12,694 nt of DNA from a virus (IMGVR_UViG_2529293249_000016:1-12694); one strand, 5' to 3'. Positions 1,132 through 11,559 are shown, numbered from the stretch's first letter. Program-made: numbers and translations. Notes: generated from the sequence alone by a model not told the origin.

Positions 1132-2193
1132 TTAATATTCAAAATTATTTTCTTCAATAGAGAACTCAATCCCTCGGGATAACTTATCAATATTCACATC
1201 AAATGCGATATCTGTTAATTCACCATCCTCGATTTCATACATAACTTCAATTTCAATATCGAAACTAATCTCTTGAACTTCAGTTCGTGTGGTTGTCTCC
1301 ATTGGAATCATTACTTTATCTTCGCTATCCCAATACCCATTATTAAAGTCTGGACCAGAAACAGTAACTTCAAAATCTACAGAAACAGAGAAGGTCGCTA
1401 GACAATAATTATTGTCAATCTTAATTATTGATGGTTCAAAGTCATCAATATTGACGACTTCAAATGAATCCAATTCAGCGTCTTCCCAAGTTGAAACGTT
1501 ATATCCATCGGCATCATTGAGTTGGGCAATTACGTCCGCTCTTATGTCTTCACGTTTGCTTTCGATAAACTGCATCAATTTATTACTTAATTCGTTTGTA
1601 TGCGTATTGTATTCACCTAGAAACTTATCAAGTGAATCAATTTGATGAAGATTGTTTTTACCATCACAATAATTTTTTAAGTCACTATCCTCAGAAATGA
1701 TATACACATCTTCATCATTAACAAATCGCTCTACCGCAGCTAAATTGATTGCATCAGGAAACTCACTTTTTTTCTTATTTTGCCCAAATGGTGGTTCTTT
1801 GCCAAAGTATTTATCTAAAACCTCATTAAGATCTATCACTTCTATTGTAGCTAATTTGGCGTGACATCCTTTCAAAAAATCATCAAAAACTTTTTGTGCT
1901 GCTTCGTGAATTTCATGTTCGTTAAATTGCTGAAAAAAACCATGGAGCGGTCCATTATCAATACTATTCAAAAGCCTAGCTTTTCTTTGTACTGTGTTTA
2001 TAGCCTGCAGAGCATCCTTTATTGATTCCTCTATTTTACCTTTTACTTCTCTCTCTACAACTGTAGTTGTAATTAAGACTAAATCACCTTTCGCACATAA
2101 TTCATGGAAAGCTTTAAATGCTACCCCCTCAAAATGAAGACCAGCCTTTACGTACGTTTGTGTGTCAATAAATACCTTATTTGTTTTAAGCAT
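1132..2193 (-). CDS. AT-rich cargo protein of 353 aa with an N-terminal PIN-like domain (VFIDTQ start) and a very acidic C-terminal half; candidate anti-phage or toxin nuclease
   Basis: ATG at 2193 with AGGA about 7 nt upstream. N-terminus MLKTNKVFIDTQTYVKAGLHFEGVAFKAFHELCAKGDLVLITTTVVEREV resembles PIN-like nuclease folds (DUF4935-type); the C-terminus is D/E-rich. Strongly AT-rich and convergent with the portal gene, lying between portal and cos. Confidence 0.7.
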   Translation of the reverse strand: MLKTNKVFIDTQTYVKAGLHFEGVAFKAFHELCAKGDLVLITTTVVEREVKGKIEESIKDALQAINTVQRKARLLNSIDNGPLHGFFQQFNEHEIHEAAQKVFDDFLKGCHAKLATIEVIDLNEVLDKYFGKEPPFGQNKKKSEFPDAINLAAVERFVNDEDVYIISEDSDLKNYCDGKNNLHQIDSLDKFLGEYNTHTNELSNKLMQFIESKREDIRADVIAQLNDADGYNVSTWEDAELDSFEVVNIDDFEPSIIKIDNNYCLATFSVSVDFEVTVSGPDFNNGYWDSEDKVMIPMETTTRTEVQEISFDIEIEVMYEIEDGELTDIAFDVNIDKLSRGIEFSIEENNFEY

Positions 2194-8406: not shown

Positions 8407-8916
8407 TCACAGCAAACCGAATGAAGCACCAAGGCCAGTCATGGTATCAACTGCACTCGCCATCGCAGGATTAGCCTGTAAACGGGCTTGCAATGAAACA
8501 GCAGCCAGCGCCATCAGTCGTGTTACAGAGTTAATGCTGCTGATAGCATCACGACGACCGGCACTAGTTTTTACATCACCAGATACCGCACCTGCTGCAA
8601 CACGCCCGATCTCTGCAGTTGCGCTCATGACGTAATGCGGCAGTTTCTCTTTTGCTACCTCATTAATCGGTACACATGGCAGACAATGAATCTGTGCCAG
8701 AAAACCATCTACCAACGTTGAATCTTCAGTCAGATCGGTAAGCAGCCAGATTTCTGGTGCGGTTAATAAATGAGGTTGAGCTGGATTCAGCTTGTTCCGC
8801 AGAATCTGCACATTCATGCCCGCACGTTCTGCCAGTTGCACCAGATTGTGGCGCAGTGCGAATGCACGACAGGCTTCATCAAAATGTGGATGTTTGGAAA
8901 CTTGGTAATCAAACAT
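8407..8916 (-). CDS. cII: Phage CII-like transcriptional activator, 186 type (169 aa)
   Basis: Internal ATG at 8916 ([19 protein letters not shown]...) with GAGG about 9 nt upstream gives 169 aa, matching the length of 186 CII as I recall it. Sits directly after the apl-like gene in the lytic operon. Confidence 0.75.
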
Positions 8917-8948
8917 GGTCGACACCTCTGATGTATCCCAAAATGGAA

Positions 8949-9170
8949 CTAGTTGAATACAACATTGCAATCAGTAAGTGCATCAACGGTAAGAGCAGCA
9001 AGGTTGATCATTACCTTTTCTCTTTTCTTGTCTTTACGAAGACGATGCCGAGGAATGCGACCATCCGCCAACATATCGTTGATTGTGTCGATTGAAAGAC
9101 CAGTAAGTTCGCTATAACGCTCGATTGTGACGTGTGGCGTATTCAGAGTTATTGAAATGTTAGGGGTCAT
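8949..9170 (-). CDS. Apl/Cox-like excisionase and transcriptional regulator with an AlpA/Xis-type helix-turn-helix (73 aa)
   Basis: ATG at 9170 with AGGAG about 11 nt upstream. [26 protein letters not shown] is a typical AlpA/excisionase HTH. First gene of the rightward operon, divergent from cI. Confidence 0.6.
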
Positions 9171-9220
9171 GATGCAACATCTCCTATTGGCTTGTGGTGA
9201 GCCTGTAGTAATCGTGACAA

Positions 9221-9236
9221 GTACCCAATTGGGTAC
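9221..9236. promoter_or_regulatory. Perfect 16-bp palindrome GTACCCAATTGGGTAC in the cI/apl switch region; candidate operator
   Basis: Lies in the roughly 95-bp interval between the apl-like and cI starts. A direct copy of AAGTACCCAA recurs at 9278-9287, inside the cI 5' end. Confidence 0.4.
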
Positions 9237-9265
9237 AAAACTGATACTAGGATCGCAAAAGAGAT

Positions 9266-9862
9266 ATGTCAACATCAAAGTACCCAAGTGAGATCAAAAT
9301 AAATCCCAATAAAGGTGGTAAGGCTGCGATTGAGCGATTAGTCGAAGCCTATGGCTTTACGACACGACAGGCTTTAGCTGATCACTTGGAAGTATCAAAA
9401 AGCACACTAGCGAACAGGTATTTGCGGGATACATTTCCTGCTGACTGGATAATCCAATGTGCTCTTGAAACAGGAACCTCCCTCAAATGGTTAACTACCG
9501 GACAAGGCCTTAAGCAAAGCTCGCTGACAGCAGCTACAGAAGAGCTTGTTAAGTTTCGCCTTGCCGCAGGCAAAATGATTGAAGACGGTTCATATGTCTT
9601 CGATTCATCATTTCTTCCTGCAAACCTTTCATCACCAATTGTTGTTCAGGATGGACTCGTCACATACATTTGTGATCAAAAATTTTCTGAAGTACTTGAT
9701 GGAAACTGGTTAATCAATATCGACGGAACCTATTCCATTCGAAAAATCACAAGGCTTCCTAAAGGAATGATTAAAATTACAACAGCAGAGAATAGCTTTG
9801 AATGTGCATTTTCTGATATTGAAGTGGTTGCTTGTATAAGAAGTACAATAGTCTCGAATTAA
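9266..9862 (+). CDS. cI: Immunity repressor, 186 CI type (198 aa)
   Basis: ATG at 9266. N-terminal HTH region (RLVEAYGFTTRQALADHLEVSKSTLANRY...WLTTGQG) and a size close to the 192 aa of 186 CI. Divergent from the apl/cII operon and upstream of int. Confidence 0.75.
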   Translation: MSTSKYPSEIKINPNKGGKAAIERLVEAYGFTTRQALADHLEVSKSTLANRYLRDTFPADWIIQCALETGTSLKWLTTGQGLKQSSLTAATEELVKFRLAAGKMIEDGSYVFDSSFLPANLSSPIVVQDGLVTYICDQKFSEVLDGNWLINIDGTYSIRKITRLPKGMIKITTAENSFECAFSDIEVVACIRSTIVSN

Positions 9863-9882
9863 TATAGTAAAAGGATTTTAAA

Positions 9883-11559
9883 ATGAATTCATTTGCCATC
9901 GTTATACTCTTATTAGCATTTCTCGCCCCTGTTCTAGCTGTAATATTATTTAAACAAAGTAAAAAACACAAAGCGGCTATAGATAACCTGACAGCTAACA
10001 ACATAGCCCTTTCTAACCAACTGATTGAAAATCAAGAAAAACTAGCACAGACCGCACGAGAATTATCAGAGCTTGAAGGGCGAGCAGCACCATTGTGGCA
10101 ATACGAAGAATTGCACAGCGCAGTAATGGATGCAGAGAATAAGATAAAAAATGCGGACTCAATAGCCAAGCAAAAAATAGATGAAGCCCAAATTAAGGCG
10201 GCTAAAACAGTAAACGAAGCAAATTATCAAGCTCAGATGACAATAAGCAACGCTAATAGCGAAGCTATAGCAATCACCAAAGACGCTCGCGATGCACGCC
10301 TGAAAGCCAAAGAACGTCTTGATAATGCTAATAATAAAGCAAATGAGCTAATCTCAAATGCTAATGACAATGCAGTAAAAATTATTTCTGATGCAGAAGA
10401 AAGAGCAAAGGAGATTGCTGGTTCAGCATATGAAGCTAAAGAGTTTGCAGAAAAATATGAAGCAGTTGCAAAATCAATGAAAAATAAAATTGAAGGTTAT
10501 GGTGATGAATGGATCATCCCTAACCGTAGTGTACTTGATGAGCTGGCAGAAAATTATGAATTTACAGATGCAGGCAAGGAATTACAAAAAGCCAGAGAGT
10601 TAACCAAATCATTAATAAAAACTAATAAAGCTGCTTCGTGTGATTATGTTGAGCAAAACAGGCGTAATACTGCCATAAACTTTGTTTTGGATGCCTTCAA
10701 TGGAAGAGTTGACAGTATTTTATCAAAAGTCAAACACAACAATTTTGGAAAACTTTCCCAAGAAATAAAAGATGCATTTCAACTAGTAAATTACAATGGC
10801 TCTGCCTTTAGGTCCGCAAAAATAAGTGACATCTATCTTCAGGCAAGACTCAACGAGCTAAAATGGGGTGTAGCAGTTAATGAAATTATGCTCGAAGAAA
10901 AAGAAGAGCAAAGAAGGATTAAAGAACAGCTTCGTGAAGAGGAAAGAGCTCGTAGAGAATATGAAAAAGCGATAAAAGAAGCTGAAAAAGAAGAAAAAGC
11001 TATTCAGCAAGCTATAAATAAAGCAACGAAAGAACTTATGCTTGCAAATGAAGAACAACGCTTAGCTTTAGAGCAAAAAATAGCTGAACTACAGTTAAAA
11101 TATGAAGAAGCTGAAGCTAAAAATCAACGAGCTATTTCTATGGCTCAACAAACCAGATCAGGCCACGTCTATATCATTAGTAATATTGGTTCATTTGGCG
11201 AAGATGTATATAAAATTGGAATGACACGCCGCCTTGAACCACTTGATCGTGTTCGTGAACTCGGAGATGCTAGTGTTCCTTTTTCGTTCGATGTTCATGC
11301 GATGATTTATAGTGATGATGCACCATCATTAGAAAACCATCTGCATAAAGTTTTCAACGAAAAGCAGGTCAATAAAATTAACTCACGAAAAGAGTTTTTT
11401 AACGTAAATTTAAAAGAAATCAAATCAGTTATTGAAGACATGAACATCAACGCCCACTGGACAATGTTTGCAGAGGCGAAAGAATATAGAGAGTCTCTAT
11501 CTATTGAGCAGGAGCGCAAAGCAGCCACTTCCGCCAACGATGAACTACATGTTGCTTAG
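9883..11559 (+). CDS. AT-rich cargo protein of 558 aa: N-terminal transmembrane anchor, long K/E/A-rich coiled coil, C-terminal T5orf172 (GIY-YIG-like) domain; candidate anti-phage defence protein
   Basis: ATG at 9883 with AAGGA 7 nt upstream, 20 nt after the cI stop. Hydrophobic N-terminus FAIVILLLAFLAPVLAVILF. C-terminus GHVYIISN...YKIGMTRR...PFSF...RKEFFNV matches the T5orf172/Mug113 pattern. Inserted between cI and int, which are normally adjacent. Confidence 0.75.
   Translation: MNSFAIVILLLAFLAPVLAVILFKQSKKHKAAIDNLTANNIALSNQLIENQEKLAQTARELSELEGRAAPLWQYEELHSAVMDAENKIKNADSIAKQKIDEAQIKAAKTVNEANYQAQMTISNANSEAIAITKDARDARLKAKERLDNANNKANELISNANDNAVKIISDAEERAKEIAGSAYEAKEFAEKYEAVAKSMKNKIEGYGDEWIIPNRSVLDELAENYEFTDAGKELQKARELTKSLIKTNKAASCDYVEQNRRNTAINFVLDAFNGRVDSILSKVKHNNFGKLSQEIKDAFQLVNYNGSAFRSAKISDIYLQARLNELKWGVAVNEIMLEEKEEQRRIKEQLREEERARREYEKAIKEAEKEEKAIQQAINKATKELMLANEEQRLALEQKIAELQLKYEEAEAKNQRAISMAQQTRSGHVYIISNIGSFGEDVYKIGMTRRLEPLDRVRELGDASVPFSFDVHAMIYSDDAPSLENHLHKVFNEKQVNKINSRKEFFNVNLKEIKSVIEDMNINAHWTMFAEAKEYRESLSIEQERKAATSANDELHVA

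Follow-up and report, generated by a model that had tools for sequence, protein, structure and literature searches.

A perfect 16-bp palindrome, GTACCCAATTGGGTAC, lies at positions 9221-9236 of the 12,694-nt stretch of DNA analysed here (hereafter the window), in the gap between two divergent genes. From its sequence and setting we consider it quite probable that this palindrome is the primary operator (O1) of a 186-type CI repressor, placed on the start point of the lytic promoter, with a second site (O2) in the first codons of cI and possibly a weak site between the two. The sequence features, the gene identities, the segregation of the palindrome with CI among related phages and the pattern of conservation on which this reading is built are direct observations. 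The predicted sites very likely represent CI operators of a new immunity type within the known class of 186-type switches; this is the expected control element in the expected place and not a new kind of system.

The window belongs to a P2/186-like (Peduoviridae) prophage of E. coli, whose switch region occurs unchanged (100% identity) in many E. coli chromosomes and with 99.9% identity in phage vB_EcoM-813R9. On the plus strand, cI (9266-9862) encodes a 198-aa repressor of the 186 type, in which Pfam identifies an N-terminal HTH domain (PF07022, E 8e-32) and a C-terminal domain (PF16452, E 4e-27). The protein shares 32% identity with 186 CI, whose structure (PDB 2FJR) it matches with an E value of 7e-27; its C-terminal oligomerisation domain is assigned by homology only (PF16452; 2FKD, E 2e-8). 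On the minus strand, a gene for a 73-aa Cox/Apl-like excisionase and repressor (8949-9170; phrog_575, E 1e-31), with weak similarity to 186 Apl itself, is followed by that of a 169-aa cII-like establishment activator (8407-8916; PF06892, E 3e-42) and then by fil, the Dam methylase gene and replication gene A. The first lytic gene is the divergent Cox/Apl-like one, with cII after it, as is typical of 186-type switches, and the order int-cI followed by divergent apl-cII is the same as in 186, as is the combination of PF07022 and PF16452 in CI. With apl starting at 9170 and cI at 9266, the gap measures 95 bp, and the same gene calls are found in GenBank ON470620 and RefSeq. An earlier note on this DNA had placed the palindrome between divergent apl-like and cI genes, and the sequence, the coordinates and the gene calls all agree with that placement.

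Repeated sites and predicted promoters in the switch region

A search of the window for GTACCCAATTGGGTAC with up to three mismatches returned this single match (0.01 expected). Perfect 16-bp palindromes as such are not rare in 12.7 kb, 0.26 being expected by chance per window; within the given 95-bp interval about 0.0012 are expected, and the occurrence there is a rare one. A second perfect 16-bp palindrome, GACAATAATTATTGTC, is present at 1401-1416 within an ORF with a PIN_12 domain (1132-2193, minus strand), which is probably an accessory gene and adjoins the portal gene.

The half-site had also been reported to recur in the first codons of cI, and it does so as part of a repeat that is longer than the motif first described. 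AAGTACCCAA occurs exactly twice in the window, at 9219-9228 and 9278-9287, with no third copy when one mismatch is allowed, and the match extends over 22 nt (9219-9240 and 9278-9299), of which 18 are identical at a spacing of 59 bp. In 300 Markov simulations of the 140-nt region the top score was 17, and 18/22 was reached in none of them. The second copy, O2 (9278-9299, AAGTACCCAAGTGAGATCAAAA), is a degenerate version of O1 and its flanks that occupies cI codons 5-12, just upstream of the −35 element of the lytic promoter. A candidate weak middle operator, Om (9251-9267, GATCGCAAAAGAGATAT), is centred at about 9258.5-9259; it contains GATC, would lie in the spacer of the same promoter, and has a symmetry of only 4/7 in the window.

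Searches of the whole window for further operator copies, with the 16-mer, 10-mer and 8-mer, with the family consensus and with a CCCA-N2-3-TGGG core, brought out O1 and O2 alone. Outside them the bare 8-mer half-site shows no enrichment in the window, and the family consensus, at up to three mismatches, has no additional match there that could serve as a distal copy of the FL/FR or pB type. The operator sequences had no match in the literature searched. An element at 8933-8949, GTATCCCAAAATGGAAC, reaches about 11/16 against the family O1 consensus in an ungapped hand count, a score that is not significant alone. This element adjoins the apl stop codon, which is the position of the distal CI site FR in 186, and CAAAATGGAAC there is conserved in relatives but could equally represent cII expression signals.

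Of the face-to-face promoters expected in the earlier note, a consensus scan of positions 8900-9500 on both strands recovered pR as its one promoter, on the minus strand with 10 of 12 consensus matches, and none on the plus strand. The pR-like lytic promoter (9244-9272) consists of a −35 TTGACA (9272-9267) that overlaps the cI ATG, a spacer of 17 nt and a −10 TAGTAT (9249-9244). Because its predicted start falls at about 9235-9237, O1, which begins about 8 bp downstream of the −10, would cover approximately +1 to +16 of the transcript. About 30 CI-family loci have the same TTGAC(A)-17-TAnnnT skeleton in their switch regions, and a strong pR directed away from cI, with predicted operators over it, is at the sequence level what characterizes a 186-type switch.

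The lysogenic promoter was located by homology. A pL-like candidate on the plus strand (9152-9180; −35 TTGAAA at 9152-9157, 17 nt, −10 CAACAT at 9175-9180) has its −35 inside apl and the apl ATG within its spacer, and it aligns without gaps to the annotated pL of 186 (TTGCGA-17-CATGAT), with CCTATT(A/G)GC coming next in both phages. Positional homology puts its predicted start at about 9186-9187; the distance between the face-to-face promoters would therefore be about 50 bp (62 bp in 186), and their predicted transcripts would overlap by about 50 nt. In P2-like phages such promoters are typically 40-60 bp apart (PMC7498355). That the consensus scan missed pL would fit a weak promoter. A further pL candidate in the gap, AGTAAT at 9207-9212, lacks a usable −35, and the gap-free homology to 186 pL was preferred over it. 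With the −35 of pR over the cI ATG and that of pL predicted inside apl, the predicted promoters and operators overlap the coding starts, which is what the shortness of the interval had led the earlier note to expect.

The pR −10 is immediately preceded by a GATC (9251-9254), and a D12 Dam methylase is among the proteins encoded by the phage (6262-7179). This GATC is kept in most heteroimmune CI-family switches examined (the anchor was found in 20 of 25 tested), and Dam methylation might affect pR or the middle operator.

In the proposed mechanism, a CI dimer would set its two HTH domains on the symmetric GTnCCCAA half-sites of O1. O1 would coincide with the start of pR, which is predicted to read leftward into apl, cII and the replication genes; CI bound there would block lytic transcription, and the weak pL that faces pR and would transcribe cI would be freed from interference. 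O2, half-degenerate and 59 bp from O1, would lie upstream of the pR −35 in the first cI codons, and a weak third site may sit in the pR spacer. Together, O1, O2 and the weak site probably let a CI multimer bracket the promoter cooperatively, in the manner of the 186 CI wheel. CI binding, promoter activity, cooperativity and wrapping are what we infer in this scheme, and we count against it the weakness of the middle site, the absence of distal copies in the window, a 59-bp spacing unlike that of 186 and the failure of pL in the scan.

Conservation and alleles of the palindrome

Conservation was analysed in 18 loci that have essentially the same CI N-terminal domain and come from at least eight genera. 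Across cI codons 13-80, between 28 and 39 of the 68 third positions differ from the window in most pairs, and 57 of 68 are variable overall; the 95-bp gap shows 6-11 differences in those same pairs, with 24 of its 95 positions variable (Fisher p ~5e-14). Divergence this deep means that the loci are old, and the contrast with the gap speaks for purifying selection on it. Within cI codons 1-12, which contain the pR −35 and O2, no third position is variable (0/12, versus 57/68 in the later codons; p = 2e-8), and O2 is invariant except at 9288. Because third positions do not vary here and O2 is nearly invariant, O2 appears to be constrained as DNA or RNA beyond the requirements of its K-Y-P codons. 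The conservation of O2 could also stem from the −35-proximal promoter region or from translation initiation.

Ten of the 16 positions of O1 are invariant, namely G9221, CCCAA at 9224-9228, GGG at 9231-9233 and C9236. Positions 2 and 15 are nearly invariant, and positions 3 and 14 are hypervariable, with four states at 9223 and three at 9234. Such a pattern is close to two-fold symmetric, as expected of contacts made by a dimeric protein. O1 is at the same time the most variable part of the gap, and this we count against its being a CI operator.

The O1 of relatives is imperfect (GTnCCCAAATGGGnAC), and the perfect palindrome is confined to one E. coli lineage. The switch is present in 172 of 5426 complete E. 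coli genomes (~3%), 100 of which are identical over 115 bp; the remaining carriers differ mainly at 9229, 9230 and 9234, which gives AAATGGGG, AAACGGGG or AAATGGGA. Two substitutions, 9229 A to T and 9234 G to T, separate the nearest allele from the perfect one, and both raise the symmetry; GTACCCAAATGGGGAC is the imperfect counterpart of the perfect allele GTACCCAATTGGGTAC. Judged from this distribution, perfect symmetry is a derived state that belongs to E. coli, and the consensus of the family is imperfect. A derived operator-up variant would fit these data, and clonal sampling offers an alternative account of them.

The same observations bear on whether the palindrome is present in the spacer by chance or as a neutral feature, with the real CI operators elsewhere, for example in the GATC element of the pR spacer or in O2. 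One could point to the concentration of the most variable positions of the gap in O1, to the restriction of perfect symmetry to a single lineage and to the second 16-bp palindrome in the window, which apparently arose by chance. Yet 10 of 16 positions are invariant in a mirror-symmetric arrangement, against near-saturated synonymous divergence in cI, the element persists amid diverged flanking DNA in the Serratia prophage described below, and only about 0.001 such palindromes are expected in the interval. We regard a neutral origin as extremely unlikely.

Selection might also act on RNA structure, through a hairpin that would lie in the cI leader and at the 5′ end of the lytic transcript, with a role in mRNA stability or antisense pairing. 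A 28-nt segment does fold on both strands, with −9.4 to −9.7 kcal/mol and a z of about −3, and it would lie at the very start of the pR transcript. The one variable pair, 3/14, is however broken in 4 of 11 variants, covariation does not rise above that of shuffles, two of three relatives folded reach only −5.6 and −7.5 kcal/mol (z −0.6), and Rfam gives no match. A hairpin would furthermore leave unexplained the O2 copy and the equivalent non-palindromic repeats of relatives. This makes RNA folding a very improbable target of selection, and we favour recognition of O1 as DNA by CI.

CI or Apl as the protein that binds the palindrome

The interval had been put forward as the site of both CI and Apl operators. 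A comparison of recombinant modules favours CI as the binder of the palindrome and speaks against Apl in that role. Klebsiella phage 4LV2017 and numerous relatives match the window at about 96% through cII, apl and the part of the gap that ends at 9218, and diverge beyond it. The Apl of 4LV2017 is 100% identical to that of the window and its CI is a different protein of 313 aa; its switch is without the CCCA..TGGG element and has TTCACA-type repeats instead. The reciprocal case is a Serratia prophage (L059), in which Apl is 41% identical to that of the window, the CI N-terminal domain is 79% identical, and the presumed recognition helix, SKSTLANRY, is the same as in the window. This prophage retains GTACCCATTTTGGGAC at the O1 position, though 36 of 95 gap positions differ from the window. 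On the strength of these two recombinants, it is the CI DNA-binding domain, and not Apl, that the palindrome accompanies.

The 313-aa CI of 4LV2017 (locus L002, 3357-4298) carries two tandem copies of the CI HTH, at residues 22-86 and about 118-190, a layout that is probably shared by many CI homologues of 290-330 aa.

Binding of the palindrome by the Cox/Apl-like protein, as between the face-to-face promoters of P2-like phages, would suit its location, since it lies between the predicted pL and pR starts, in the region of the Apl sites of 186. It is nevertheless at odds with the phages that have an identical Apl and no palindrome, as well as with the one that keeps the palindrome next to an Apl of 41% identity. 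Moreover, the sites recognized by recombination directionality factors, Apl among them, are direct repeats with a period of one helical turn and not inverted repeats (PMC7498355). We therefore judge it very unlikely that Apl is what the palindrome serves, and assign the palindrome to CI. Apl sites would most likely be found between the predicted pL start and O1 (9187-9218), a near-invariant segment that is about 96% shared with heteroimmune phages of identical Apl and contains possible YYGTRR boxes at about 9192, 9203 and 9212, which may be bound by Apl.

Downstream of int in vB_EcoM-813R9 (locus L003, 7296-7352), an att arm contains AACCTAACTTATTGTTTT twice with a period of 19 bp and, on the other strand, TGGTGGT twice with a period of 10 bp; these could be Int arm-type or Apl sites. 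Derivation of Apl boxes from this int-proximal arm was dropped, the repeats resembling the Int arm-type consensus quoted in PMC3448106.

Another dimeric regulator might in principle occupy the site, whether a host factor or a second phage protein linked to an antirepressor or encoded by the cargo, and the variable cargo that adjoins cI lends this idea some plausibility. The palindrome, however, co-occurs with the CI N-terminal domain whatever cargo sits between cI and int, and it resembles a proven operator of 186 CI; we accordingly give a third regulator little credence and retain CI as the candidate. The cargo itself occupies the cI-int interval (9883-11559) and in the window encodes a 558-aa protein with DUF4041 and T5orf172/MUG113, which one genome annotates as 'SNIPE associated'. 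In its place, relatives that share the switch (among L053, L055, L057, L059 and L061) have a 664-aa SMC_N/AAA_15 protein or unrelated proteins of 282-360 aa. The start codon (9883) of the next gene after cI lies within a 14-bp perfect palindrome, AAATGAATTCATTT (9881-9894).

Operator architecture in relation to phage 186 and other switches

The comparison with the 186 pR/pL region, using operator sequences taken from the coordinates annotated in NC_001317, revealed shared elements in a different spacing. The central CI operator at 186 pR is ATCTCTCAATTGGGAGAT, and its CAATTGGG core is common to the window palindrome. Further sites, predicted in the case of the window, lie around the −35 next to the cI start in both phages, and the hexamers of the pL candidate align gap-free with those of 186 pL. 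The HTH segments are also similar (SKSTLANRY in the window CI and SSSLSNRY in 186 CI); we take them to be the recognition helices from the usual HTH pattern. Because the outer operator bases differ (GTAC in the window versus TCTC in 186), the immunity is predicted to differ from that of 186. The A-type sites of 186 at FL, FR and pB, ATTCAC-N5-GTGAAT, were not found in the window.

The geometry departs from 186 in several respects. The strong palindrome is at +1 to +16 of the predicted pR, whereas in 186 the central operator is in the pR spacer. About 59 bp separate the outer operators (some 30 plus 29 with the weak middle site), against 40 bp (20 plus 20) in 186, so that the arrangement of three pR operators about 20-21 bp, or two turns, apart is absent here and the outer sites stand about one helical turn further out. 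The intergenic gap measures 95 bp here and 129 bp in 186, and, unlike in 186, the upstream operator and the −35 are inside or on the start of the cI coding sequence. In switches of the 186 type, Apl direct repeats with a spacing of 10-11 bp are situated between pL and pR and also at att, and the distal CI sites FL and FR about 300 bp to either side.

This spacing is found in other members of the CI family. The argument was drawn from loci with exact repeats only, since an automated three-copy motif finder was noisy at weakly repetitive loci. The heteroimmune Enterobacterales switches L015, L018 and L030 have the same promoter skeleton and three repeat positions about 30 bp apart, each group with its own repeat sequence, which is often non-palindromic. 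With repeat centres counted from the G in the GTCAA that identifies the pR −35, the three exact copies of GCTTTTGGAATC in Brenneria (L015) are at −38, −8 and +20, the CATTTTGAAATC-type repeats in Kluyvera (L018) at −37, −7 and +23, and the GTAAACGTTTCG-type repeats in Serratia (L030) at −40, −6 and +19; L013 and L017 behave in the same way. O1, the weak candidate and O2 of the window are centred at −39.5, −9.5 and +19.5, and the mapped pR operators of 186 at −29, −10.5 and +11. The middle candidate of the window is ATCGCAAAAGAGAT, and its equivalent in L059 is the much better ATCCCAATTGAGAT. The window appears to follow a common family plan, with sites on the start point, in the spacer and upstream of the −35. 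In most heteroimmune relatives cI starts about 30 bp further downstream and the upstream operator is non-coding; the earlier start of cI in the group of the window, by about 30 bp, brings this operator inside codons.

These positions suggest that 186, with its two-turn spacing, may be atypical of its family, which would bear on the model of wrapping around the CI wheel. The 186 CI forms a 14-mer wheel that wraps DNA. It also binds sites 32 bp apart at pB, and three-turn phasing would account for the ~180 bp of DNA wrapped in AFM of 186 CI (PMC3675496). Mild novelty lies only in the approximately three-turn spacing in most relatives and in the derived perfect-palindrome allele. A combined reading may be ventured, although we hold it to be somewhat doubtful as a whole: an array of CI sites with about three-turn spacing (~30 plus 29 bp) here and in most CI-family switches sampled, built from GTnCCCAA half-sites and a GAGAT-type arm (in O2 and Om), and a perfect allele (100 of 172 E. 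coli carriers) that is an operator-up variant fixed by selection for tighter repression. If this reading were true, natural relatives would bear on why 186 CI wheels occupy about 180 and not about 147 bp, and on three-turn phasing as a native binding mode (PMC3675496).

In practical terms, the analysis provides a concrete, predicted map of operators and promoters for an immunity group of 186-like prophages whose hosts are E. coli, Klebsiella, Enterobacter, Citrobacter, Raoultella and Serratia, and which carry variable defence-type cargo beside cI. The perfect and imperfect alleles form a natural pair for examining how operator symmetry tunes a switch based on transcriptional interference.

Two other kinds of switch were considered and rejected. 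In P2, W-phi and P2 Hy dis, the convergent promoters Pe and Pc are accompanied by two direct C-repressor repeats that flank the early promoter Pe; convergent promoters, and repeats that bracket the lytic one, belong to P2-type switches (PMC1904268, PMC1904263) and are predicted in the window as well. P2 and the window also have in common a Cox-type protein as the first lytic gene product. The P2 C protein, a small repressor that binds non-palindromic direct repeats (PMC2995052), is unrelated to the CI of the window, which has a two-domain 186-type repressor, an inverted repeat as its main site, and cII. The repressor type and the inverted-repeat main site rule out a P2-type C/Cox switch. A lambdoid OR combines back-to-back PR and PRM with three operators of 17 bp, and its repressor contains an S24 peptidase domain; it is ruled out by the convergent predicted promoters, by PF16452 in CI and by the lack of an S24 match in that protein.

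Residues 1-80 of CI are near-invariant across homologues (P0088, P0093, P0094 and P0105), with a strongly diverged C-terminal domain and an overall identity of 56%, a pattern that suggests exchange of DNA-binding and oligomerisation modules between homologues. In E. coli 13E0725 (L065), cI is a pseudogene with an internal stop and the pR −10 has changed from TAGTAT to TGGTAT; this switch looks to be decaying.
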